Counted from the stretch's first letter, positions 5,236 through 63,216 are shown. The stretch: 64,000 bases of DNA from Candidatus Babeliales bacterium (GCA_049692255.1 JBAVOR010000031.1:21744-85743); one strand, 5' to 3'. A program made the numbers and translations. Notes: generated from the letters alone by a model not told the origin.

Positions 5236-6714
5236 TCAGCTACGCCGCATCCAATACGCGCCACAGCTACCGAGTAGTAGCCCAACAGAGGAAGCAACTG
5301 GCATGAGCAATCCACTGAAAGCCAGCAGCACATTCACGCGCATCATATGCAAAACAATGCCCCACAAAAACCCACCCACCGCATGCACAGGCTGTAAAGC
5401 ATATGCTGGCGCCTGCACCAGTAATGCACGTGCACGTGCGCGCGATGCGTACGCGGCGATAGTATCAATACCTAAAGAGGCGGGTAATAATACACAAAGA
5501 GTGGCCATACACAGTACACTCAAGCAGAGCCCCCATACTTGATATTGTTTTACGCGCGTTGCATCAAGAGTAAGCAACTGTCCCATTTTTCTACTAATCA
5601 TCAGATCTGCGCATACGCCACCGACAATTTCAATCCACACCGCAACAAGCAGCCCTTGCACCTGCGTAAAGCTAAAAAGCAATACGGCAGGAACCATCGC
5701 AAAGGTTGCAAAACGCCCAAGTGGCGCAACGCCGGCAGCTCCTGCAATAGTTACCAAACAGTACGCAGCAATACCGGTTGCACCTACCACATATGCCGCT
5801 TGCATCAACGTACCACCAAACAGTACTGGTACGCACAATAATACCCCTAGCGCCCCGTGCATGACGTTCGCTACACATACTTTTCTTAGATAATGGACAA
5901 AGTTTAGATAGCGCACCTTTTTTATCCCACCGACCATGGTGAATAGCATCGCACCCATTGTTTGCACAGTGGCTGCAATTACCATACCTGCTCCAACGCT
6001 CATAAGCGCGCTCTCTACCCCGTTCAGCTGCATAACCAATTTCATGCTGAGGCCAACAGCTACAGGTACCAATAATAAGTGCCCGGCAACATATCCAACG
6101 GCAATAACGATCGGAAAAAGCACACCCGTTGAACGTAATGGGCTCACCTGCACACACAGTAACATACGCGTCAGTTCACCAGTAACCATCAACACGCTCC
6201 CTATAATGCCGCGCCGTATCTGCATTGGTGACCATGCGTCATGAATCATGGTTGCATGCAATTTACTCAGCGCAAAGGGTAACGTTCGCACCGCATCAGT
6301 TGATTCATACCACTGGGCACATACATATCCAATAAATGCTGCACAACCGATCAATGCAACAAGCAGACCCCACAACAACACCGGTTGCGCCATAAGCTGT
6401 GTAACAAGCGTAGGATCGTTGTAATAAAAAGCAGGCAACGAAAATGCACACGCCGTCGCTATAATGCCCCCCGCAGATGCACCTGCTACCGCGTAACCAA
6501 CAGTGGCCACCCGTGACTCATTACATCTAACGTGCCACTGCATCAGCATGCGTGCACATACAATAAGTATCGGCGCAATCCACGGCCCCACGGGAGTAAT
6601 GAGCGATACATAACTCATAATGGTCGTTGCGAGAATAGTTAAAAGAAAGGTGAGTAAAAGCGTAATGTTATGCATAAGCTCTCGTCCGCCGAACTCTGCC
6701 ATGCTGGAAAGCAT
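5236..6714 (-). CDS. Polytopic inner-membrane transporter, possibly OPT (oligopeptide transporter) family
   Basis: 492-aa ORF made almost entirely of Gly/Ala-rich hydrophobic helices (at least 12). The segment RTLPFALSKLHATMI resembles the LPFPSGTA motif of OPT transporters. Family assignment is tentative; the start could be M1, M5 or M14. Confidence 0.45.
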   Translation of the reverse strand: MLSSMAEFGGRELMHNITLLLTFLLTILATTIMSYVSLITPVGPWIAPILIVCARMLMQWHVRCNESRVATVGYAVAGASAGGIIATACAFSLPAFYYNDPTLVTQLMAQPVLLWGLLVALIGCAAFIGYVCAQWYESTDAVRTLPFALSKLHATMIHDAWSPMQIRRGIIGSVLMVTGELTRMLLCVQVSPLRSTGVLFPIVIAVGYVAGHLLLVPVAVGLSMKLVMQLNGVESALMSVGAGMVIAATVQTMGAMLFTMVGGIKKVRYLNFVHYLRKVCVANVMHGALGVLLCVPVLFGGTLMQAAYVVGATGIAAYCLVTIAGAAGVAPLGRFATFAMVPAVLLFSFTQVQGLLVAVWIEIVGGVCADLMISRKMGQLLTLDATRVKQYQVWGLCLSVLCMATLCVLLPASLGIDTIAAYASRARARALLVQAPAYALQPVHAVGGFLWGIVLHMMRVNVLLAFSGLLMPVASSVGLLLGSCGAYWMRRS

Positions 6715-6815
6715 AGATAAACGAAGGCTGGATTGACAAAAAATTGATTACTGTTAGAATAAACAGTTATATTTATAAAGCAAGTAAGATAAAATAAAAA
6801 AAGAATTGGAAGTTT

Positions 6816-9267: not shown

Positions 9268-9531
9268 ATGCTTACCTCTTTTTTACAAAAAATAATATCT
9301 ATGTTGGGTTTACTAAAAAATAGATATGAAAAGCAATGGTTGTGAAATGCGAAGCGCTGCCGTAATGAAATGGAGGCAAATGAGTTGCCCTACCACGCTG
9401 CTTTCTACTTCGTTGAAACTTTGTAGAACAGGTCGAAGAGCATATTTCGCTATAAAATCCTGTGTATGGCCTGCCATGCTGCTACGCTTCTTCGAGCTAT
9501 GGCAATACAGGGCCGTGGCTTGCCCAGCCGA

Positions 9532-9560
9532 AGCTTGCCAAGCCTGTAGGCATGGATAAG
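9532..9560 (+). repeat. Family-A extended hairpin, copy A1
   Basis: gcttg-cc-aagcc-tgta-ggcat-gg-a-taagc. Lies 6 nt from the 3' end of tRNA-Leu(CAG). Confidence 0.7.
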
Positions 9561-9566
9561 CGTAGG

Positions 9567-9653
9567 CTGGTGCCGGAGACCGGACTCGAACCGATACAGT
9601 GTTACCACCGCAAGCACCTGAAGCTTGTGCGTCTGCCAATTTCGCCACTCCGG
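9567..9653 (-). tRNA. tRNA-Leu (anticodon CAG), CCA encoded
   Basis: Reverse complement GCCGGAGTGGCGAAATTGGCAGACGCACAAGCTTCAGGTGCTTGCGGTGGTAACACTGTATCGGTTCGAGTCCGGTCTCCGGCACCA. 7-bp acceptor stem, anticodon loop TTCAGGT, long variable arm, TTCGAGT T-loop. Confidence 0.9.
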
Positions 9654-28399: not shown

Positions 28400-29041
28400 A
28401 TGCATTTTTCTGAACATCTTCCCCTTTTCTTGCAAAAAAAAGCAGATCCAAATGTTCAAACTAAAGAAGGCGTGCCACTAACGGTAGCAATAGATGCAGG
28501 CCACACAGCAACAATCTTGCATTTATTAGAAGCTGGGGCAAATCCCAATGCGTATGTTGATCAAAATTATAGTAAAGTTATTACTCCATTAAACGAAGCT
28601 ATACGCAAGGGTGAACTCGATATCGTAAAGTTATTGTTGCAATTTGGCGCGAACCCTAATATGGGTTACTCTTGCTTAGCAGAGACCACATCGCCTTTAC
28701 TTACAGCAGTAAGAAATAAAATTGGAATTAGAATGCGCGATAACGATAAGCCAATTGTCGCTTCATTGTTGCGGCATGGTGCATATCCCTATGAGGTCAA
28801 TGGGATCAATGTTTTGTCTGTAATGAAACAAGAATATTTCGATAAATATAGTATCCCGGAAGAAAAAAACCGCATTGCATATAAAAAAATTGCGCGCGTT
28901 TTTGTACAATACGCTGGTGTTAAGCGCGCACTATCGGGGGAATTTATAGATCAACAAAAGCGACTGCCCGCAGAAATTATTGCGATGATTATGCCATTTG
29001 TTGGAATCAACTTAGCAAGCGAGTTAGAAGCTAATACTTAG
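28400..29041 (+). CDS. Ankyrin-repeat protein, 5'-truncated paralog of 29718..30608, with F-box/PRANC-like C-terminal tail
   Basis: ANK repeats (G.TPL..A...G....V..LL..GA.PN pattern, e.g. VPLTVAIDAGHTATILHLLEAGANPN). The frame is open upstream to 28217 and still homologous to the paralog (KLSDLSHL vs KLDDLSGL), but has no start codon or signal peptide there. Tail RLPAEIIAMIMPFVGINLASELEANT. Confidence 0.65.
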   Translation: MHFSEHLPLFLQKKADPNVQTKEGVPLTVAIDAGHTATILHLLEAGANPNAYVDQNYSKVITPLNEAIRKGELDIVKLLLQFGANPNMGYSCLAETTSPLLTAVRNKIGIRMRDNDKPIVASLLRHGAYPYEVNGINVLSVMKQEYFDKYSIPEEKNRIAYKKIARVFVQYAGVKRALSGEFIDQQKRLPAEIIAMIMPFVGINLASELEANT

Positions 29042-29717: not shown

Positions 29718-30608
29718 ATGACCCATAAAAAATTGTTCGTTTTACTGTTTCTGGGAGCATTTGCATCTGTAAACTGCGGAACTCCTAACAATACCACTCA
29801 GCCGCCAGAAGGTTCTGCGAATTTTGATCATCTTTTTGCGAACTGGCAGCCAATGAGCGAACCATACGGACATTATCTCGCATCCACCCACCCTTCACCT
29901 GTATACCTAGACCTAGGCTCTTGGTTTGAGGGCATACATCATACTTCTACCGCGACCGACTTCGACCACCTCTATTCCCATATTCAACGTGTGGGCAGTA
30001 AGATTGAAAATCTTCTGAAATTAGATGACTTATCAGGCCTTGAAAAAGATTCTCCGCTCCTTGATTATCAGCTTTACAACTCTTTCCCCAACAAACTTCC
30101 CCTTCTCTTGGAAAAAAAGGCGAATCCTAATGTACAAGGTTGTGTAGGAAACGTCCCACTAGCAGAGGCAATAAACGCCAATAACAGAGAAGCGGTAATA
30201 ATGTTGCTTAAAGCAGGTGCTAACCCAAACGTGGTACACAAATCCATATTTAAAACCACCACTCCTCTAATAAAGACTATCGATCTAGGTATGATTATTT
30301 TATTTAATTCCGAAAAATCCTCGCTTGTTGCAGCCTTACTACGATATGGTGCAGATCCATTGATCAACAATAGCGTAGGGCAAAATGCTCTAGCAATAAT
30401 GAAAGAAAATTACACAGATATACAACCGCAAAAGCGTCATGCTGAATATAAAAAAATTGCGCGCGTTTTTGTACAATACGCTGGTGTTAAGCGCGCACTA
30501 TCGGGGGAATTTATAGATCAACAAATGCGACTGCCCGCAGAAATTATTGCGATGATTATGCCATTTGTTGGAATCAACTTAGCAAGCGAGTTAGAAGCTA
30601 ATACTTAG
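29718..30608 (+). CDS. Secreted/lipoprotein-like ankyrin-repeat protein with F-box/PRANC-like C-terminal tail
   Basis: 296 aa. Signal peptide MTHKKLFVLLFLGAFASVNC (Cys at the cleavage region). ANK repeats (VPLAEAINANNREAVIMLLKAGANPN). The last 54 codons are nearly identical at the DNA level to 28879..29041. Confidence 0.75.
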   Translation: MTHKKLFVLLFLGAFASVNCGTPNNTTQPPEGSANFDHLFANWQPMSEPYGHYLASTHPSPVYLDLGSWFEGIHHTSTATDFDHLYSHIQRVGSKIENLLKLDDLSGLEKDSPLLDYQLYNSFPNKLPLLLEKKANPNVQGCVGNVPLAEAINANNREAVIMLLKAGANPNVVHKSIFKTTTPLIKTIDLGMIILFNSEKSSLVAALLRYGADPLINNSVGQNALAIMKENYTDIQPQKRHAEYKKIARVFVQYAGVKRALSGEFIDQQMRLPAEIIAMIMPFVGINLASELEANT

Positions 30609-33131: not shown

Positions 33132-33721
33132 CTGAATTTCACGCCATACACTCGCGCTAACTGTTGCGGCACAACTCTTTCACACCATGCTAGCCATGTG
33201 GGTACATGTAAATAATATTCATGCGTAACTGAAGCACTATCTGTTTGCAACCACTGATACAGCGTATTACATGAAATAAAGGTCGCATTACGCTCGTGCA
33301 CATCAGTTAATCGTGTTAACTGCACGCTCGGGCAATAGGGGTTGTATTCTAAAATTATTAACATGCCGCCAATCGGCAACAAAGACATAAGCTCATGCAC
33401 TGTTGTCTGCTGTTCAGCTCGCGGCACGTGGTGCAGCATTAACGATGCAATAAGAATGGTGGGTGTATATGCAGTAATATCGTTCAGCTGATTAATCGCG
33501 TGAAATTGCACATCGGCATGCATGCGTTGCGCATGGGCAATAACTGCCATGTCTGTATCAACGCCAATAACGGTGTGCTCAAAAAACAGGCTTGCTAAAC
33601 ACGCAGTCAATAATCCGTCGCCACAACCAACATCAATGATGGTTGCATGTGGTGGCACATCGCCAAGTAACTCTTTAATGCGCTGCGCCTTCCATTGCGC
33701 GCTCGCCAGTTGTTCAGTCAT
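33122..33721 (-). CDS. Class I SAM-dependent methyltransferase
   Basis: ORF 33122..33760; likely start is ATG 33721 (MTEQLASAQW). Motif I IIDVGCGDGLLT, plus post-I and motif II-like segments. Confidence 0.75.
   Translation of the reverse strand: MTEQLASAQWKAQRIKELLGDVPPHATIIDVGCGDGLLTACLASLFFEHTVIGVDTDMAVIAHAQRMHADVQFHAINQLNDITAYTPTILIASLMLHHVPRAEQQTTVHELMSLLPIGGMLIILEYNPYCPSVQLTRLTDVHERNATFISCNTLYQWLQTDSASVTHEYYLHVPTWLAWCERVVPQQLARVYGVKFRKK
33693..33720. repeat. 28-bp perfect direct repeat, left copy (contains the first codons of the methyltransferase)
   Basis: cattgcgcgctcgccagttgttcagtca, identical to 34584..34611. Confidence 0.9.
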
Positions 33722-33738
33722 TATATTGCGCCTCCATC

Positions 33739-33802
33739 GCGCTCTTACCCTTCGATACACCCGTCTTCGCTTTCAGCTACGTCGGGCACTCAGGGTGAGC
33801 GC
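33739..33802. repeat. Family-B GC-rich palindromic element, copy B1 (long form)
   Basis: gcgctcttacccttcgatacacccgtcttcgctttcagctacgtcgggcactcagggtgagcgc. Confidence 0.8.
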
Positions 33803-33807
33803 ATTGT

Positions 33808-33914
33808 AGCAAACTCTTTTTATCAATTGTGCTCATCCCGCCTGCTATGCGCACTATATTTCATAGAGCGCCCCATTCCCTATAGTACGCACTACAGATT
33901 ATAAAGCGCTCATC
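33808..33914 (+). repeat. About 105-bp direct repeat, left copy (flanks GIY-YIG gene 2)
   Basis: tagcaaactctttttatcaattgtgctcatcccgcctgctatgcgcacta...cagattataaagcgctcatc. About 85-90% identical by eye to 34449..34551. Confidence 0.8.
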
Positions 33915-33977
33915 TCGACCCGTCTTTGCCAAGGCTTCGCAGCGGCAAGGTGATTGAGGTATCGCCTGTCCGCCAAA

Positions 33978-34006
33978 GCTTGCCACGCTAGAAAGCGTGG
34001 ATAAGC
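33978..34006 (+). repeat. Family-A extended hairpin, copy A4
   Basis: gcttg-cc-acgc-tagaaa-gcgt-gg-a-taagc. Lies 3 nt from the stop of GIY-YIG gene 34010..34297. Confidence 0.7.
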
Positions 34007-34009
34007 GTA

Positions 34010-34297
34010 CTAATCAAATTGTTTACGTGCGTATTCATGTAGTAATTCAAAATCCCCTCGTATCAGTGCTTCTTTTTTTTTACGACTCCATTTTTTAAGT
34101 TTACGTTCTAATTCAAATGCTTCATCACGAGTATTGCAATTATATGAAAAAACGAGCATTATCGGCAATCGGTGCGATGTATATCCACTAAATATACGTT
34201 GCTCGTGTTGAGATAGACGAATTCCGATATTATCGGTGTGTCCTACATAGTAAGAATCATCAGAACATCTGAGAATATACACAGTAAAATTATTCAT
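34010..34297 (-). CDS. Small stand-alone GIY-YIG nuclease-family protein
   Basis: 95 aa. FTVYILRCSDDSYYVGHTDNIGIRLSQHE ... NTRDEAFELERKLKKW gives the GIY/YVG, R and E core of the GIY-YIG fold. Confidence 0.8.
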   Translation of the reverse strand: MNNFTVYILRCSDDSYYVGHTDNIGIRLSQHEQRIFSGYTSHRLPIMLVFSYNCNTRDEAFELERKLKKWSRKKKEALIRGDFELLHEYARKQFD

Positions 34298-34313
34298 TAA
34301 TTACTTTTCCTGA

Positions 34314-34365
34314 GCGCTCTTACCCTTCGATACACCGCTCTTCGAGCGGCACTCAGGGTGAGCGC
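34314..34365. repeat. Family-B palindromic element, copy B2 (52-bp form)
   Basis: gcgctcttacccttcgatacaccgctcttcgagcggcactcagggtgagcgc. Confidence 0.8.
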
Positions 34366-34448
34366 AGTATAGCAAGCTATTTTTATCAATCTCTCTTATC
34401 TCGACACGGCTTCGTTAAAGCTACGTCAGGTGCTTGGGATGCATAGTT

Positions 34449-34551
34449 TAGCAAACTCTTTTTATCAATTGTGCTCATCCCGCCTGCTATGCGCACTACA
34501 ATGCACAGAGCGCCCACTATAATACGCACTTCAGATTATAAAGCGCTCATC
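34449..34551 (+). repeat. About 105-bp direct repeat, right copy
   Basis: See 33808..33914. Confidence 0.8.
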
Positions 34552-34593
34552 CCGAGTGATCGCGAAGCGATTGTATCGAGGGACATTGCGCGC
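34543..34593. repeat. Family-B palindromic element, copy B3 (inverted orientation, degenerate right end)
   Basis: gcgctcatcccgagtgatcgcgaagcgattgtatcgagggacattgcgcgc. Overlaps the right 28-bp direct repeat. Confidence 0.65.
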
Positions 34594-34611
34594 TCGCCAG
34601 TTGTTCAGTCA
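34584..34611. repeat. 28-bp perfect direct repeat, right copy (2 nt from the lysS stop)
   Basis: Identical to 33693..33720. Here it is followed by c (GTG instead of ATG on the minus strand). Confidence 0.9.
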
Positions 34612-34613
34612 CG

Positions 34614-36110
34614 CTAGTCGTGTTTTTTCTTTAACGTCGGGAATAAGATAACATCTTTAATTGATGTTGTGTTGGTGGCTAGCATTACCAAGCGATCGAT
34701 ACCAATGCCCACACCGGCGGTTGGTGGTAACGCATGTTCTAATGCCAAAATATAGTCAGCATCGTACTGATGCGCCTCTTCATCACCCGCGCGATGGGCA
34801 ACCAACTGTTGCTTAAAACGCTCTGCCTGATCGAGTGGGTCATTTAACTCATTAAAGCCATTGCTGATTTCCATGCCACCAATGAACAGTTCAAACCGTG
34901 CAGCAATAGCCGGGTTATGTGCATCCCGCTTTGCCAATGGAGAGACTTCGATGGGAAAATCGATAACAAAGGTTGGCTGAATCAATTTACTTTCTACCAA
35001 CTCTTCAAATAACGCATAAATCTTTTCTGCATGTGCTGCTTGGCTGTGTTTTGCTTTTACGCCGTGCGCACGCATGGTTGCATCGATGCTATCTGCTGTT
35101 AAGTCTGATGCTGGTATGCCCCCAATTTCAGTTACTGCGTTTACAATAGAAATACGTTTAAACGGTTGAGCAAAATCGATGGTTACTGCACCAAATGGTA
35201 CTGCCAAGTTCCCCACGCTGTCGGTGAGTACAAATCGCAATAACTCTTCTACAAAGGTCATAGCCCCCTGATATTCTTGGTATGCCATATAAAATTCAAG
35301 CATCGTAAATTCAGGGTTATGGCGCGTAGACACTCCCTCATTTCTGAAGTTACGATTAATTTCATAGACCCGTTCAAAGCCCCCTACCACTAACCGCTTT
35401 AAATATAACTCTGGAGCAATACGCAAATAAAAATCACTGCTAAGCGCATTGTGATGGGTAATAAATGGACGGGCTGCAGCACCACCAGCAATCGGGTGCA
35501 ACATGGGTGTTTCTACTTCTAAAAACTGGTGCCGATCAAGGAAAGCGCGCAACGCGCGAATAATGCGGGAACGGGTAGCAAATTTTTGCTTGCTTTCTGC
35601 ACTACTAATCAGATCAAGGTACCGTTGCCGATACCGAATTTCTGTATCAGCAAGCCCATGATATTTTTCTGGCAACGGATGCAATGACTTGCTCAGCATC
35701 TTCCACTCAGTTAACTCAAGGGTAATTTCCCCCATCTTCGTGCGGAACGGAGTGCCGGCACACCAAAGAATGTCTCCAACATCAACGAAGCGTTTAAACT
35801 GCTCGAACGACTGTTCTCCCAGCCCATCTTGACGAACATACAATTGCATGAGCGCAGTGCCGTCTTGAATGTCAGCAAAAATCGTTTTACCATGCCCTCT
35901 AATGCCCATAATACGCCCGGCAATATCATAGCGTGACGCCTGCTGATCGGTACCAAAAGCAGTTAAAATATCTTTAGCTGTATGATCTACCGGTACCATC
36001 TCTGGCCAAGGCTCTATCCCCTGGTCACGCATATCAGTTATTTTTTGCTTTCTTATGGCCAGTTCCTGCGATAAATTAGGGGTAGTTTCGTTCATTTGAT
36101 TCATGAGCAC
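34614..36110 (-). CDS. lysS: Lysyl-tRNA synthetase, class II
   Basis: 498 aa. OB-fold N-domain, class II motifs (FRNEGVSTRHNPEFTMLEFY, GGMEISNGFNELNDP, GIGIDRLVML). Start is GTG 36110 or ATG 36104/36095. Confidence 0.9.
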   Translation of the reverse strand: MLMNQMNETTPNLSQELAIRKQKITDMRDQGIEPWPEMVPVDHTAKDILTAFGTDQQASRYDIAGRIMGIRGHGKTIFADIQDGTALMQLYVRQDGLGEQSFEQFKRFVDVGDILWCAGTPFRTKMGEITLELTEWKMLSKSLHPLPEKYHGLADTEIRYRQRYLDLISSAESKQKFATRSRIIRALRAFLDRHQFLEVETPMLHPIAGGAAARPFITHHNALSSDFYLRIAPELYLKRLVVGGFERVYEINRNFRNEGVSTRHNPEFTMLEFYMAYQEYQGAMTFVEELLRFVLTDSVGNLAVPFGAVTIDFAQPFKRISIVNAVTEIGGIPASDLTADSIDATMRAHGVKAKHSQAAHAEKIYALFEELVESKLIQPTFVIDFPIEVSPLAKRDAHNPAIAARFELFIGGMEISNGFNELNDPLDQAERFKQQLVAHRAGDEEAHQYDADYILALEHALPPTAGVGIGIDRLVMLATNTTSIKDVILFPTLKKKHD

Positions 36111-41979: not shown

Positions 41980-42043
41980 GCGCTCGACACCCTTCGATAC
42001 ACCCAACTTCGCTGTAAGCTCGTTGGGCACTCAGGGCGAGCGC
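41980..42043. repeat. Family-B palindromic element, copy B4 (long form)
   Basis: gcgctcgacacccttcgatacacccaacttcgctgtaagctcgttgggcactcagggcgagcgc. Starts 3 nt after the ftsI stop. Confidence 0.8.
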
Positions 42044-42134
42044 AGTTTACGCTATTTTGCAAATAAACTCTCATTAATCTCTTCAATTATAATCCAGCAA
42101 CTGACGCACTTCTTCTCAAACAAATTGTACATAC

Positions 42135-42186
42135 GCGCTCATCCTGAGTGCCACTCGGAGAGTGGCGTATCGAAGGACATGAGCGC
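42135..42186. repeat. Family-B palindromic element, copy B5 (52 bp, inverted orientation)
   Basis: gcgctcatcctgagtgccactcggagagtggcgtatcgaaggacatgagcgc. Confidence 0.8.
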
Positions 42187-51210: not shown

Positions 51211-51406
51211 CATCTTCTTTCTTCAAAATCTCCTTCTTTTTTCAAGTTCTTTGTAGCCCTTCCAGGGCATGGCCAAGAGGGTTCTTGCCAACCCTCTTGG
51301 ATTCCAGCCTACGTTTATCCACACCTCCTGGCTTGGCAAACTACGGCGGACAGGCTCGGGCGTTAGAAGATGTTGAAGAAAAAAAAAGATTTTAAAGAAG
51401 GAGAGC
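51211..51406. repeat. About 200-bp imperfect palindromic (MITE-like) element upstream of groES
   Basis: T/C-rich left arm (catcttctttcttcaaaatctccttcttttttcaag) and its approximate complement on the right (cgttagaagatgttgaagaaaaaaaaagattttaaagaaggagag). These flank a perfect 11-bp-stem hairpin (51273..51300, ccaagagggtt-cttgcc-aaccctcttgg) and a family-A hairpin. Open on both strands (ORFs 51171..51395 and 51223..51468). Confidence 0.5.
51313..51341 (-). repeat. Family-A extended hairpin, copy A5 (reverse orientation)
   Basis: Reverse complement gtttg-cc-aagcc-agga-ggtgt-gg-a-taaac. Confidence 0.6.
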
Positions 51407-52356: not shown

Positions 52357-54063
52357 TCACCAAACAGAATTGTAAAAAGGACAAGTGAGATCAACTCTAT
52401 TATTTTTTACTGGATAATTTTTTGCAATCAAAGAGCCAATATAGGTTTTGTCGTTAGTATTTACTAAGCTGTTATAAATAGGGGCCATGGTGCTACCATA
52501 TTCGATTGATAAAGAGTTTCCGTTTCGCTCACGATTCAAACATAATAATGCTTGTGGAACCGTATTTATGGTCGGCTTTTTGACACATATTAATCCAGCA
52601 ATAAGACCTACGGCGATATAATCACCGTCGGGACTAAATGAAACACAACGAACACAATTACCCGTATAAACATCATCAGTTTCATCAAAGGTGAAGACGC
52701 ATTGCTGCGAAGAGATATCAAAAACTTTCATTATTCCATCACATGAACGAGAAGCAATAAATTGGCCATCAGGACTGAAACAGACATCGTAAGTACAATT
52801 AGCATGGCAAGCACAATTAGTATGGCCCTCATCCTTTGCATCAAATGTATAAACACATTCCCTCGATGCTATATTAAAAACTCTTATTACCCCCTCACTA
52901 GAACCAGTAGCAATATACTTGCCATCGGGGCTAAAACAAATGCACAGAGCACCTGCATCAATACCATTGGATTCATCAAGTGTATGCATACACTGCTTTG
53001 ACGCGACGTCAAAAAACTTTATTGAATTACCAAATGAGCAAGCAATAAATTTACTGTTGAGGTCGAAACAAACATCCGCAATACGGCCGATTTGATCGAA
53101 TGTATGAACGCACTGTTTCAATGCTACATCAAAAATTTTTATCGACTGATCAGAAGAACCGGAAATAATACGTTTACCATCAGGGCTAAAACAAATGCTA
53201 TTGACACGCTCCAGATGACCGTCACTTCCCCTATAAAATGTACTAATACATTCCCCAGAACCCGCATTAAAAATACTTACTGTGCCAATATTAGAGCCAT
53301 AAGCAACAAGCCTTTGGTCATCGGGACCCCAGTAGATGCACTGAACACAATCAGCAATATCAGCATTAGCCTTATAAAAGGTATACACACATTGCTCGGA
53401 CGAGATATCAAAAAAATCTATTGACCCATCGTATGAACCCACAGCAATATGTCGCCCATTAGGGCTAAAACAAATGCTTGCAGCCCGATAACAAGCATCG
53501 GGGGTAAAGACATGAGCATCAAACCAAATATCATTTCCCATTTTTCGCGCTACAACTTTTTCTTGGTCTGGGTTTAATTCAAATTCTTTTGAGATTGCAC
53601 TAGGCTTTTCTATAAATAGCTTGATAGTTTCCGGTGATTTAAGACGGCTAGCAATCTCGCCTAATACGGGATCCTCAAGCTCTTTACAATTCAAAAATGT
53701 AGCAACGTATGCAATCTTTTTGAGAGCACCATTATTATTCATTTTTATATCTGGTCTGACATCCTGTTTAAAAACCAACTTTTTAAGTAAAGGATGTATA
53801 TGTGCTTGCCAGTCTACATGCGAAAGCATTGGAGTAATAGGCAATGGTTGTTCACCAAAATCTGAACGCATTTCTTTTAAGGTTGTACACAAATCAACGA
53901 ACTCAACTGGTACCGTAACCGTACGATAACTGGTCAGCTTTGTTTGGTCATACAATTGCAAGCGAACCGGCACCGATGGTGCAATTGGTACCTCAATCTG
54001 CTCCATGCCTTTCATAAGAGTTGATGAAAATATAATTGCGATATGCAGATAAAGACATTTCAT
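52357..54063 (-). CDS. Skp1-like domain + WD40 beta-propeller fusion protein (paralog A)
   Basis: 568 aa. AGAGGA RBS. Hydrophobic N-terminus MKCLYLHIAIIFSSTLMKG. Residues about 25-175 align by eye with eukaryotic Skp1 (VEFVDLCTTLKEMRSDFG...PLPI vs VEIAKQSVTIKTMLEDLG...PLPN; ALKKIAYVATFLNCKELEDPVLGEIASRLKSPETIKLF vs [40 protein letters not shown]). Then at least 6 WD40 blades with FSPDG...GS.D..I..FD repeats. Confidence 0.7.
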   Translation of the reverse strand: MKCLYLHIAIIFSSTLMKGMEQIEVPIAPSVPVRLQLYDQTKLTSYRTVTVPVEFVDLCTTLKEMRSDFGEQPLPITPMLSHVDWQAHIHPLLKKLVFKQDVRPDIKMNNNGALKKIAYVATFLNCKELEDPVLGEIASRLKSPETIKLFIEKPSAISKEFELNPDQEKVVARKMGNDIWFDAHVFTPDACYRAASICFSPNGRHIAVGSYDGSIDFFDISSEQCVYTFYKANADIADCVQCIYWGPDDQRLVAYGSNIGTVSIFNAGSGECISTFYRGSDGHLERVNSICFSPDGKRIISGSSDQSIKIFDVALKQCVHTFDQIGRIADVCFDLNSKFIACSFGNSIKFFDVASKQCMHTLDESNGIDAGALCICFSPDGKYIATGSSEGVIRVFNIASRECVYTFDAKDEGHTNCACHANCTYDVCFSPDGQFIASRSCDGIMKVFDISSQQCVFTFDETDDVYTGNCVRCVSFSPDGDYIAVGLIAGLICVKKPTINTVPQALLCLNRERNGNSLSIEYGSTMAPIYNSLVNTNDKTYIGSLIAKNYPVKNNRVDLTCPFYNSVW

Positions 54064-55286: not shown

Positions 55287-56921
55287 TTAAAACAATGAAC
55301 CGATATACTCTTTAGTGTCACCATCTGAAATGCTGGTATAAACACGTGCCAGATCTGTACCACGTTTAATTTCCAGTCGCTGGCCATCTTTCTCGCGGCT
55401 CAACAGCAAAAGCGCTTGTTCAATAGTATTAGTTTCGGTTGGTTTTTTATAAAGCTCTATTGAACCATCAGCAAACCCAGATACTAAATACTGGCCATCA
55501 GGGCTGAAATTACATCCATAATTCACCGGCAGTATCTTTATCAATTGCCGCGACAATAGACCAAATATTCTCAGCGACCCATCGCGCGCGCGCGAAATAA
55601 TCTCTTTACCGTTAGGGCCAAAACGTACTTCAACGATATCTTCAATAGAACCACCATTATTTTCATCAATGGTATGAACGCATTGCTGTTTTGCAATATC
55701 AAACAGCTTTATCATTCTCTCATCTGCCGCAAGAATATATTTACCGTCAGGGCTCACACACACTGTATGAATGGTATCAAAAGAACCAACGTAGCTCGGT
55801 TTGACATACCCACCATTTCGTTGATCAAAGGTGCCCAGACGCTCTTTTGTCGAAGCATCAAATATTTCGATTGATTTATCGTTGATAGCAGAAATAAGAT
55901 ATTTGCCATCAGCACTAAAACAAATGGCGCTAATTGACTCGAGATAGCCCCCATGATTTTTTTGATCAAATATATCGTACTGTTTTTTCAACAGATCAAA
56001 ATTACGCAAGGTGCCGCTTGTACTAAAAACAAGATAGTTGCTGTCAGGGCTAAAAAAGAATGCATCTATATCATTCACTTCGGCAACTCGTTGCTTTGTC
56101 GATACATCAAAAACCTTCATTGACCCATTTAATACCTTGGCAGCAATATAGTTGTTGTTGGGGCTTATGCGAACTACCATAATTTCGTTTTCCCAAATGC
56201 GGGGAGTATTTTCGTTCAGATCAAAGGTATGAATGCAGCTTCTCGAACTCATATCAAAAAAATTTATTAACTTATCCTGTGATCCAGAAACAAGATATTT
56301 ACCATCAGCGCTAAAATTGACGCTGTAAATTGCCGCATTCTTACGACCATTGTTTTGATCAAACGTATGCGCACAAAACCAAGTATGGTTTATCATTTTT
56401 CGAGCGACGGTGCGCTCCTGAGCTACGCTTAGTCCAAATTCTTTTGAGATTACATCCGGTTTTTCTTTAAATTGCTTGATCGTGTTGGGGGATTTAAAAC
56501 GCCTGACAATATCATCTAGCACTGGATCTTCAAGACCTTTACAATTCAAAAATGTAGCAACGAGTGCAATTTTTTTAAGATCATCATTATCATGCGTTTG
56601 TATATCTTGTCTGATATCCTGCTTGCAAATAAGCTTATTGAGTAAAGGATGTATATGCTTCTGCCAGTCGGCGTATGAAAGAACCGTTGGGGTAATCGGC
56701 AATGGTTCTTCACCAAAATCTGAACGCATATCTTTTAACGTTGTACACAAATCAACGAATTCACCTGGTACCATTACCGTACGATAACCGGTGAGCTTTG
56801 TTTGATCATACAATTGCAAGCGAATCGGCACCGATGGGGCAAATGGGACCTCGATCTGCTGCATGCCATTCATAAGCATTGACGATACTGTAGCAGTCAC
56901 AAACAAATATATGCTTTTCAT
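55287..56921 (-). CDS. Skp1-like domain + WD40 beta-propeller fusion protein (paralog B)
   Basis: ORF 55287..56987. ATG 56921 is preceded by AGGGAG. The N-terminal 170 aa are highly similar to paralog A (IRLQLYDQTKLTGYRTVMVPGEFVDLCTTLKDMRSDFGEEPLPITP). WD40 blades (FSADGKYLVSGSQDKLINFFD and others). Confidence 0.7.
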   Translation of the reverse strand: MKSIYLFVTATVSSMLMNGMQQIEVPFAPSVPIRLQLYDQTKLTGYRTVMVPGEFVDLCTTLKDMRSDFGEEPLPITPTVLSYADWQKHIHPLLNKLICKQDIRQDIQTHDNDDLKKIALVATFLNCKGLEDPVLDDIVRRFKSPNTIKQFKEKPDVISKEFGLSVAQERTVARKMINHTWFCAHTFDQNNGRKNAAIYSVNFSADGKYLVSGSQDKLINFFDMSSRSCIHTFDLNENTPRIWENEIMVVRISPNNNYIAAKVLNGSMKVFDVSTKQRVAEVNDIDAFFFSPDSNYLVFSTSGTLRNFDLLKKQYDIFDQKNHGGYLESISAICFSADGKYLISAINDKSIEIFDASTKERLGTFDQRNGGYVKPSYVGSFDTIHTVCVSPDGKYILAADERMIKLFDIAKQQCVHTIDENNGGSIEDIVEVRFGPNGKEIISRARDGSLRIFGLLSRQLIKILPVNYGCNFSPDGQYLVSGFADGSIELYKKPTETNTIEQALLLLSREKDGQRLEIKRGTDLARVYTSISDGDTKEYIGSLF

Positions 56922-57005
56922 AAAGCTCCCTTGCACATCGTTGCATTGACCAACTTGCATAAAAATAGTTACGTTCACAACGAGCATTGTATATAAAACG
57001 GTACA

Positions 57006-58917: not shown

Positions 58918-58983
58918 GCGCTCAGATACCCCTTCGATACACCCGACTACGCTAAAGCTACGTCGTGCACTCAGGGCGAGCGC
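58918..58983. repeat. Family-B palindromic element, copy B7 (long form)
   Basis: gcgctcagataccccttcgatacacccgactacgctaaagctacgtcgtgcactcagggcgagcgc. Lies 20 nt upstream of the tkt start. Confidence 0.8.
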
Positions 58984-62928: not shown

Positions 62929-62980
62929 GCGCTCATGTCCTTCGATACACCGCTCTTCGAGCGGCACTCAGGATGAGCGC
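62929..62980. repeat. Family-B palindromic element, copy B8 (52-bp form)
   Basis: gcgctcatgtccttcgatacaccgctcttcgagcggcactcaggatgagcgc. Lies 13 nt upstream of the cyclase start. Confidence 0.8.
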
Positions 62981-63111
62981 TTTTTAAGCTTATGTGCTAT
63001 GGACTAGTTAAATTTTATACAATCAAACTAATAGATTATCAATCGCTCTTTTAAAGATCCTTAATAGTCTATGGCTCACCGGGACCGGATAAAGTTTTGC
63101 TTGCTTTTTTT

Positions 63112-63162
63112 GCGCTCATCCTGAGTGTTCGACAAAGTCGAATGTATCGAAGGGTCAAGCGC
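63112..63162. repeat. Family-B palindromic element, copy B9 (inverted orientation)
   Basis: gcgctcatcctgagtgttcgacaaagtcgaatgtatcgaagggtcaagcgc. Confidence 0.75.
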
Positions 63163-63216
63163 TCATATGGTTCGATACGATTTTTCGCTACGCTCAAAAT
63201 CACTCACCATGAGCGC
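63159..63216. repeat. Family-B palindromic element, copy B10 (shares a terminus with B9; right end forms the last codons of gnd)
   Basis: gcgctcatatggttcgatacgatttttcgctacgctcaaaatcactcaccatgagcgc. The minus-strand reading of its right end gives ...PSAHGE-stop of the gnd-like gene. Confidence 0.6.

Follow-up and report, generated by a model that had tools for sequence, protein, structure and literature searches.

A GIY-YIG nuclease gene between hairpin repeats, bounded by a 28-bp duplication of a neighbouring gene end, in a Candidatus Babeliales genome

In this study we describe a small gene cassette located between lysS, encoding a class II lysyl-tRNA synthetase, and the gene of an S-adenosylmethionine (SAM)-dependent methyltransferase in Candidatus Babeliales. 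The analysed DNA is a 64-kb stretch of a Candidatus Babeliales contig (hereafter the window; all coordinates are positions within it), and lysS, the methyltransferase gene and the gene carried by the cassette, which encodes a single-domain nuclease of the GIY-YIG type, are all on its minus strand. The cassette consists of the nuclease gene and palindromic hairpin repeats, and is bounded by a 28-bp direct repeat that duplicates the 5' end of the methyltransferase gene. Because an architecture of this kind, Ssn/NTS(SRM), has already been published (Chenal et al. 2025, Nat Commun 16:2388, PMC11893778), the cassette does not represent an undescribed class of mobile element, as the original prediction for this DNA had supposed; judged from its sequence, it appears to belong to the Ssn/hairpin system, or to be a sister of it, with a distinct class of hairpin. 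We consider it fairly probable (approximately 0.6) that an Ssn-type cassette was inserted, as a block of ~863 bp, into a formerly tight lysS-methyltransferase junction, with duplication of 28 bp. The right copy of the repeat is best read as a relic of this junction, and the GIY-YIG protein, proposed from the outset as the candidate mobility function, is a plausible agent of the insertion.

The 28-mer (CATTGCGCGCTCGCCAGTTGTTCAGTCA) is present in exactly two copies in the 64 kb (Table 1), and no further copies with up to 3 mismatches were found in the window or in 100 shuffles. It is locus-specific, as predicted, and the assignment of its left copy to the start of the methyltransferase gene was also borne out: since the methyltransferase N-terminus can be aligned from residue 1 with that of its sole homologue (P0122), the left copy is native and the right copy is the relic. 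This homologue, 39% identical, was the only one found among 5.8 billion proteins, i.e. the gene is lineage-specific. The right copy is situated, again in agreement with the prediction, 2 nt (CG) past the lysS stop codon; it is preceded by a G and opens a dead-end frame of 21 codons. In place of a 5' outer arm, the adjacent hairpin (B4) has the last ~12 nt of this copy, and for this reason the duplication is not cleanly separate from the B family of hairpins. The idea that the 28-mer as a whole is a common B-family repeat was rejected in view of the native methyltransferase N-terminus; it holds true for the last ~12 nt only. The methyltransferase also gave a partial match (1e-12) to the PADLOC model mad2 (methylation-associated defence system), which probably reflects only the common SAM fold, and searches of defence-system libraries yielded weak partial matches only.

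Both outer junctions were recovered in two independent Logan contigs, derived from the same sequencing run (SRR28002569). The first (L130), in which the 496-aa lysS product is present, has the order lysS-CG-28mer-B4-C3, and the second (L001) the order C1-B1-ribosome-binding site-ATG-28mer-methyltransferase. As both 28-mer junctions are thus independently reproduced, the duplication itself is real. Both contigs end within the C repeat, and for this reason the order of the block interior is known from the window assembly alone. A repeat-driven mis-join could be envisaged, in which case the true locus would be shorter, lacking the nuclease gene and containing C only once: both Logan contigs stop in the C repeat, C1 and C3 share an identical stretch of ~47 nt with which a shorter k-mer path would be compatible, and the gene collection has no entry for the nuclease protein. 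Given that the two junctions were confirmed independently, and that the same interior architecture is found at another locus (L010) on a 1.2-Mb contig, we regard such an artefact as very improbable.

The nuclease gene is the only real open reading frame (ORF) between the 28-mer copies, its position and product being those originally predicted. Likewise in accordance with the prediction, no transposase (DDE, HUH, serine or tyrosine) was found in the block, and no ORF of a tyrosine or serine recombinase, as would be expected of an integrative element with att duplication, between or beside the 28-mer repeats. Residues Y7, Y17, R27, H31 and E64 of the protein are invariant across 21 aligned relatives, and its predicted structure is one compact domain (pLDDT 91) with no added DNA-binding domain. 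The nearest solved structures are those of the UPF0213 proteins BH0048 and EF2693 (closest in sequence, 2e-11), followed by the nuclease domain of Slx1, while the best relative among the 5.8 billion proteins, also from Candidatus Babeliales, is 69% identical. The GC content of the gene is 0.34, compared with 0.44-0.49 in the flanking genes. A GIY-YIG protein gene of deviant base composition between two conserved genes might suggest a free-standing homing endonuclease gene, inserted between lysS and the methyltransferase gene by intronless homing. We find this scarcely credible: the protein has only 95 aa and no DNA-binding domain, it has no phage homologues, an Rfam scan of 33500-34800 detected nothing even at E = 5, and thus no intron RNA, homing leaves no duplication, and homing genes are not characterized by inverted hairpins at their flanks.

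The exact nuclease protein is absent from a collection of 15 billion proteins in which the methyltransferase of the same contig is present; apparently the gene went uncalled there, perhaps owing to its low GC content (0.34). The window contains one copy of the gene and a 36%-identical paralogue. The latter, a second small GIY-YIG gene (14473-14715, plus strand; 80 aa, Pfam 7e-19), is located between tRNA-Arg and tRNA-Ser genes, with an intact hairpin of the A family 21 nt upstream of its ATG. Two different tRNA-Ser genes (GCT and TGA; 13960-14179 and 14795-15016) have ~130-nt trailers that differ at one base, and these direct repeats enclose the tRNA-Arg gene, the A hairpin and the second GIY-YIG gene, in a layout similar to the doublet-gene-doublet block described below. 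The genome may hold two nuclease/hairpin pairs. A-family hairpins, found at 6684-6732, 9527-9570, 11163-11204, 14405-14453, 33967-34009 and 51310-51358, parallel the B family in their build: the outer stem is followed by an internal loop that is conserved (GAAGCTTGCC / GGATAAGCG) and an inner stem that varies. Two of them adjoin the 3' ends of tRNA-Leu genes.

The sequence between the 28-mer copies comprises 863 nt and has, in the direction of the genes, the order (B4-C3-B3 doublet) - C2' - B2 - nuclease - A hairpin - (B5-C1-B1 doublet) - GGAGG - A. In each B element an outer stem (GCGCTCA../..TGAGCGC) is separated by an internal loop of conserved sequence (CCTGAGTG / GTATCGAAGG) from an inner stem-loop, which is variable. 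Five such palindromes are present in the block, and not three as first reported, B1 and B2 being intact and B3, B4 and B5 degenerate. The direct repeats of ~105 bp that had been noticed on both sides of the nuclease gene were recovered (33807-33873 vs 34449-34515, 94% identity; 33880-33918 vs 34517-34555, 92%); they are the two hairpin doublets, and can be extended to ~160 nt at 81% identity (33759-33918 vs 34404-34555). The A-family hairpin, placed in the original prediction 3 nt from the nuclease stop codon, in fact abuts this codon and is truncated there. The C segments end in sequences that were judged extended -10-like by eye only, the C1 end being absent from the promoter scan list; promoter and terminator scans gave nothing above shuffles and no canonical terminators. 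The right end of the block (hairpin, GGAGG and A) resembles the hairpin-ribosome-binding site-ATG module that usually precedes the nuclease gene, and now serves the methyltransferase. In the whole window, which is part of the only contig known for this genome, there are 7 intact and 4 degenerate B copies, distributed over five places.

The significance of these palindromes was assessed in 80 metagenome loci encoding relatives of the nuclease (50-61% identity), the named relatives spanning several phyla. The B-family motif (CCTGAG...TCGAAGG, whose long form contains an inner stem of variable sequence) occurs at a density of 4.6 per kb within 150 nt of the gene vs 0.10 per kb elsewhere, a 45-fold enrichment. 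Its orientation is also strongly biased: upstream of the gene 41 copies are 'rv' (CCTGAG..TCGAAGG reading) and 4 'fw', whereas downstream 31-43 are 'fw' (reverse reading) and 9-12 'rv'. Among the 76 loci with both flanks, a canonical inverted pair was found in 30 and at least one motif copy in 53; 20 of the remaining 23, which lack the exact motif, were inspected, and in most of these there are variant hairpins, likewise inverted, with the ends CCGTTCG../..CGAACGG. One flank can repeat the other exactly, in inverted orientation, over as much as 120 nt. The canonical short form upstream is CCGTTCGTCCT-GAGCTTGTCGA-AGGATGAACGG, with the complement downstream, and in relatives from other phyla several ORFs run into the downstream hairpin, which results in HPSTSSG tails (translation of CCTTCGACAAGCTCAGG). 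The strand that folds slightly better is CCTGAG..TCGAAGG in 78 of 138 hairpins and the other strand in 54 (p = 0.001), which is no more than an indirect hint of strand-specific binding and cleavage; all 7 window copies follow the former pattern. In 52 of 83 cases, proteins that are nearest neighbours have hairpins of the same class (chance expectation 30%), and two other Dependentiae-like contigs have relatives with the same kind of hairpin beside the gene. B2 itself lies 16 nt upstream of the nuclease ATG, in the position and orientation seen in 39-41 related loci. The B palindromes, initially regarded as part of a remainder of nested repeats, are the signature hairpins of this nuclease family and not incidental repeats.

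These data bear directly on the view that the hairpins are ordinary terminators or mRNA stabilizers resembling repetitive extragenic palindromes (REP), that the GIY-YIG protein is an unrelated housekeeping nuclease, and that the 28-mer arose by a chance slip. B and A hairpins do indeed occur beside many other genes and tRNAs in the window, and they fall into no Rfam family and include no canonical terminators. We nevertheless consider this view highly unlikely, taking into account the 45-fold enrichment and strict orientation of the motif around relatives of the gene from several phyla, its absence from most Babeliales lysS loci (in ~16-20 loci, ~220 kb in all, it was found in L011 only), and published biochemistry that ties such hairpins to such nucleases (PMC11893778).

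Several loci show further hairpin arrangements. In L109, seven short-form hairpins follow the nuclease gene, from 10 to ~520 nt past it, mostly at a spacing of 99 nt from start to start. In two other loci the gene lies between direct repeats of whole hairpin doublets (L061, 113 nt, 98% identity; L051, ~170 nt), which resemble the C/B repeats of the window.

Comparison of the loci with each other provided evidence for movement of the cassettes. Three pairs of genes (L096/L103, L086/L123 and L052/L053) are 88-91% identical in DNA and have flanks that are dissimilar even by tblastx; in orthologous gene pairs, in contrast, the flanks are shared. The unit common to L096 and L103 is ~500 bp long, with terminal inverted repeats of ~48 nt. 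The homology of L052 and L053 begins at the outer end of the upstream hairpin and, in L053, stops within the downstream one. Another pair (L072 and L076) is identical over the cassette and ~170 nt beyond it, with the exception of the inner stem of one downstream hairpin (~60-110 nt past the gene), which has been swapped; farther downstream the flanks differ. This suggests that inner stems are exchanged in a cassette-like manner between hairpin copies.

We also searched for non-hairpin direct repeats around all cassettes (83 loci), and found them in four. In the window, the repeat (28 nt, no mismatches) corresponds to bases 2-29 of the methyltransferase gene and encloses a block of 863 nt. In L089 it has 32 nt with 3 mismatches and spans positions -16 to +16 of the downstream gene (block of 511 nt); in L123, ~24 nt with 2 mismatches and a 2-nt indel, from the upstream ORF at its 3' end, immediately ahead of an hsdR-like start (708 nt); and in L010, 21 nt with 2 mismatches, from the 3' end and stop codon of the upstream ORF, which abuts the stop codon of a convergent dnaA gene (752 nt). 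All four repeats thus enclose a hairpin-gene-hairpin block of 511-863 nt and duplicate a neighbouring gene end at a tight gene junction. The DNA between the neighbouring gene end and the first hairpin consists, in three of the loci (the window, L010 and L089), of the repeat copy and a few bases only; in L123 the repeat copy lies inside the end of the upstream ORF, ~40 nt ahead of the first hairpin. The doublet-gene-doublet layout of the window recurs in L010, and in both loci the first repeat copy is directly followed by T(A)TCC(C/T)TCGATAC, i.e. a terminal hairpin without its outer arm. Methyltransferase codons 7-10 mimic this missing arm in the window. Candidate repeats in two further loci (L121 and L054) were discarded as chance matches inside coding regions.

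The main rival to the insertion of a whole block is a local patch copy made at a nuclease cut site. According to this scenario the hairpin cluster and the nuclease gene already lay between lysS and the methyltransferase gene; when the DNA broke at the outer edge of B4, repair copied ~28 nt of the methyltransferase 5' end, primed on microhomology (GCGCGCAATG / GCGCTCATG), so that only the 28-mer was added. It would account for the fact that other B hairpins align, in their 5' outer arm, with the last ~12 nt of the right copy, and for the finding that most related loci have no flanking duplication, and it agrees with the cutting of Ssn enzymes just outside their own hairpin (PMC11893778). However, the patch would have had to start exactly at the second base of the start codon and to fill the whole space between the lysS stop codon and B4, and in L010 and L089, too, the repeat copy alone separates the gene end from the first hairpin (the L123 copy being ~40 nt off, inside the ORF). 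Moreover, L010 and L123 duplicate the 3' end of the upstream gene, which a patch does not predict. On balance we think a patch unlikely.

A somewhat less probable alternative dispenses with the nuclease altogether and assumes import by homology-facilitated illegitimate recombination from another strain, in which the same methyltransferase allele lay behind a hairpin/nuclease cluster; one homologous crossover would have taken place inside the methyltransferase gene, and the other joint would be illegitimate, formed at microhomology. The left joint does show microhomology, the donor ends in L089 and L123 are imprecise, and the swap of an inner stem between the otherwise identical L072 and L076 shows frequent recombination among copies. 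Import would require a donor with an identical methyltransferase 5' end, yet the gene was found in no other organism, and it leaves unexplained the narrow range of 21-32 nt in four unrelated loci. As repeat length is variable and the ends of L089 and L123 are imprecise, some room is nevertheless left for recombination-based routes.

Insertion of the block remains our preferred reading, and a number of observations weigh against it. Flanking repeats were found in only 4 of 83 loci and the other 79 have none, so that a universal target duplication had to be rejected; the repeats vary in length (21-32 nt), the donor ends are not uniform, and the block ends of L089 and L123 carry 40-65 nt of non-hairpin DNA. 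Variable repeats and non-uniform ends fit recombination better than the action of a precise transposase. With one copy of the gene in the window and a nearest protein only 69% identical, there is no sign of recent proliferation. The family was detected in 1 of 72,556 plasmid records and in none of the phages, the published SRM pattern (considered below) matches no B hairpin, and the order of the block interior is not confirmed by an independent assembly. Finally, an empty site (the lysS stop codon joined directly to ATGACTGAAC...GCAATGGAAGG) was present in no collection searched, the 28-mer is absent from JGI metagenome contigs, and none of the Babeliales genomes compared shares its lysS neighbours with the window. 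In a lysS-based scan of 185,579 species genomes the closest lysS sequences, from Babeliales/Dependentiae, were 57-70% identical, and the only contigs retrieved by exact-protein look-ups were two from Logan (one run), each in the filled state. With no close relative of the genome available, and no close homologue of the methyltransferase, an empty site could not be found. Of the original claim, the insertion between lysS and the methyltransferase gene stands as the best reading, three other loci being alike; its interpretation as transposition is a supposition, with no empty site, no identical second copy and no duplication of fixed length. Among the plasmid-borne sequences, the 850-kb plasmid of Sphingomonas paeninsulae (L129) carries at 1501-1740 a decayed copy of the nuclease gene, whose YVGHT motif is interrupted by an in-frame stop, inserted between rnc and era.

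How the block may have been inserted can be outlined by analogy with SsnA enzymes. The nuclease would bind its hairpin only when the latter is single-stranded, and would cut that strand a few nucleotides away. The block would have entered just after nucleotide 29 of the methyltransferase gene, with duplication of 28 bp of the target, and the left junction would have formed where methyltransferase codons 7-10 (GAGCGCGCAATG) resemble the outer arm of a B hairpin (GGCGCTCATG). The right end of the block (B1, GGAGG and A) would thereby have become the source of the present ribosome-binding site of the methyltransferase gene and of the A of its ATG. A possible route would involve cuts beside the inverted hairpins on opposite strands, producing long staggered ends. 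The anatomy of the locus, the association of gene and hairpins throughout the family, the near-identical cassettes in unrelated flanks and the four loci with duplications of 21-32 nt have been shown directly; we infer the role of the nuclease as driver of the insertion, the strand and site of its cut, and the ancestral empty site.

It is tempting to extend this scheme to the whole family and to regard hairpin-ssnA-hairpin as an autonomous mobile element, in which a 95-aa nuclease specific for single-stranded DNA, by cuts next to inverted hairpins on opposite strands, moves a 0.5-0.9-kb block with an unusually long target duplication of 21-32 bp, often into tight gene junctions. We put this forward as a tentative proposal, possible and at present rather doubtful. 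If true, it would represent a mode of transposition without a described counterpart, and would explain the spread of the hairpin repeats.

The features of the locus are listed in Table 1, together with the B hairpins found elsewhere in the window. Other parts of the window encode paralogous WD40 beta-propeller proteins (52357-54063 and 55287-56987) and ankyrin-repeat proteins (28400-29041 and 29718-30608), the genes of the latter having in common a 98%-identical 3' segment of 198 nt. Eukaryote-like repeat proteins are typical of amoeba-associated bacteria.

Table 1. Features of the lysS-methyltransferase locus and other B-hairpin sites of the window (fw and rv, orientation relative to the genes)
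Feature	Position	Strand	Remarks
lysS, class II lysyl-tRNA synthetase	34614..36104	-	stop TAG 34614-34616; Pfam tRNA-synt_2 6.5e-92 and OB fold
28-mer, right copy	34584..34611	-	pseudo 5' end of methyltransferase gene
B4, degenerate long-form hairpin (TCCCTCGATAC..CACTCGGGATGAGCGC), fw, left terminal hairpin	34545..34583	-	from alignment; DNA fold no better than shuffles
C3, ~105-nt spacer of left doublet, direct repeat of C1	34449..34555	-	
B3, degenerate B-type hairpin, rv, closes left doublet B4-C3-B3	34395..34447	-	
C2', partial third copy of C-segment end	34366..34403	-	
B2, intact 52-nt hairpin, canonical upstream rv hairpin	34314..34365	-	DNA fold -15.4 kcal/mol, z = -5.0
ssnA-like gene, 95-aa single-domain GIY-YIG nuclease	34010..34297	-	Pfam PF01541 2.7e-16, residues 4-75
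A-family hairpin (second hairpin family)	33967..34009	-	truncated at nuclease stop codon; z = -3.9
B5, degenerate B-type hairpin, fw, downstream partner of B2, first in right doublet	33909..33962	-	
C1, spacer of right doublet, direct repeat of C3	33804..33918	-	ends TTGATA-N12-TGCTACAAT
B1, intact 65-nt hairpin, rv, closes right doublet B5-C1-B1	33739..33803	-	DNA fold z = -4.0
Block right end	33721..33738	-	supplies GGAGG (33731-33735) and A of methyltransferase ATG (33721)
28-mer, left copy	33693..33720	-	TG of methyltransferase ATG and codons 2-10 (native coding sequence)
SAM-dependent methyltransferase, class I, 199 aa	33122..33721	-	Pfam Methyltransf_25/23/11
Gene-less B-hairpin doublet	41980..42186	.	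fw 41980-42043, rv 42135-42186
Solitary B hairpin	58918..58983	.	
Gene-less B-hairpin doublet and variant copy	62929..63216	.	fw 62929-62980, rv 63112-63165, variant 63166-63216

In sequence and fold the nuclease is closest to UPF0213 proteins (BH0048 and EF2693) and to the Slx1 domain, with which it shares the single GIY-YIG domain. E. coli YhbQ is also a UPF0213 protein, and to our knowledge no association of this family with hairpins has been described. The activity of Slx1 depends on Slx4 and a RING domain, and is directed at branched double-stranded DNA. A literature search on GIY-YIG in combination with YhbQ, UPF0213, RAYT or Dependentiae gave nothing relevant, while one on extragenic palindromes led to the Ssn paper.

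The GIY-YIG homing endonucleases (I-TevI and the Seg proteins of T4) have a C-terminal DNA-binding domain, reach 200-250 aa in total and cut double-stranded DNA; they occur in phages, introns and organelles, and leave behind neither a flanking duplication nor hairpins. The cassette has in common with them the catalytic domain and a gene able to sit between conserved genes, and is set apart by its 95-aa protein devoid of a DNA-binding domain and by the lack of intron RNA and of phage homologues. The 'peel and paste' elements of the IS200/IS605 type are similar in being small and in having hairpin ends that are recognized as single-stranded DNA. They use an HUH transposase, carry both hairpins on one strand and produce no target duplication. 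Classical insertion sequences, for their part, differ in being present in several near-identical copies per genome, the window containing one copy and a 36%-identical paralogue.

The layout of the cassette is reminiscent of REPtrons, i.e. REP/BIME repeats with RAYT (TnpA-REP) genes, reportedly described by Nunvar in 2010, Bertels and Rainey in 2011 and Ton-Hoang in 2012. In both cases a nuclease gene is bracketed by inverted copies of the palindromic repeat of its own genome, gene-less inverted doublets of the hairpins (REPIN-like) occur, and the system is chromosomal and rare on plasmids. The analogy is confined to the layout, since the enzyme here is of the GIY-YIG type and not an HUH Y1 transposase. 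Moreover, RAYTs are mostly inherited vertically, whereas the cassettes described here can be ~90% identical in unrelated contexts.

The closest counterpart is the Ssn system. The SsnA protein of Neisseria meningitidis (94 aa; CDD cd10448) consists of a single GIY-YIG domain. Its binding to the NTS hairpin requires single-stranded DNA, and the bound strand is cut a few nucleotides upstream; it is inactive on double-stranded DNA, RNA and the opposite strand, its mutants Y6A, Y17A and E64A are inactive, and it reduces transformation by NTS-bearing DNA (PMC11893778). A related motif (SRM) was found near 71% of SsnA homologues, and on both sides in 42%; NTS-ssnA-NTS was likened to an insertion sequence and compared with REP/BIME and RAYT, domestication was suggested, and such repeats were reported to be abundant in symbiont genomes (PMC11893778). 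The protein encoded in the window is of nearly the same size (95 vs ~94 aa), with a single GIY-YIG domain and the same catalytic Tyr/Tyr/Glu positions. Its gene has inverted hairpin repeats on both sides (the intact B2 upstream and the degenerate B5 downstream), as do the genes in most of the 80 related loci, the published description of flanking repeats being hairpin-forming sequences of 20-50 nt, inverted 5' and 3', and the same hairpins are scattered singly and in clusters through intergenic DNA.

The two systems also differ in several respects. The hairpin consensus is another one: in CCTGAG-loop-TCGAAGG the loop is large and conserved, or a stem of variable sequence is nested in it. The published SRM pattern (HGTCWYN(0-2)YYVSBRHN(0-5)WNVSBRGN(0-2)RNCYNB), which did detect the NTS used as a control, gave 1 match within 500 nt of the gene across the 80 loci, which is the background level. 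The nearest solved relatives of the window protein are UPF0213, and neither flanking duplications of 21-32 nt nor near-identical cassettes in unrelated flanks were reported by Chenal et al. 2025. Our analysis also defines a second, very widespread class of hairpin (CCGTTCGTCCTGAGCTTGTCGAAGGATGAACGG and a long form with a nested variable stem), missed by the published search pattern. It should be useful in annotation, because the hairpins generate spurious peptides such as PSTSSG, and should also help in the selection of new enzyme/site pairs as tools for single-stranded DNA. Whether the hairpin-gene-hairpin unit is or was mobile, and how the repeats multiply, had been left open in the 2025 description of Ssn. 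The window and the three unrelated loci provide the first concrete footprints, in the form of long duplications of neighbouring gene ends around whole cassettes, and these make the question of mobility testable with a marked cassette and by comparative genomics.

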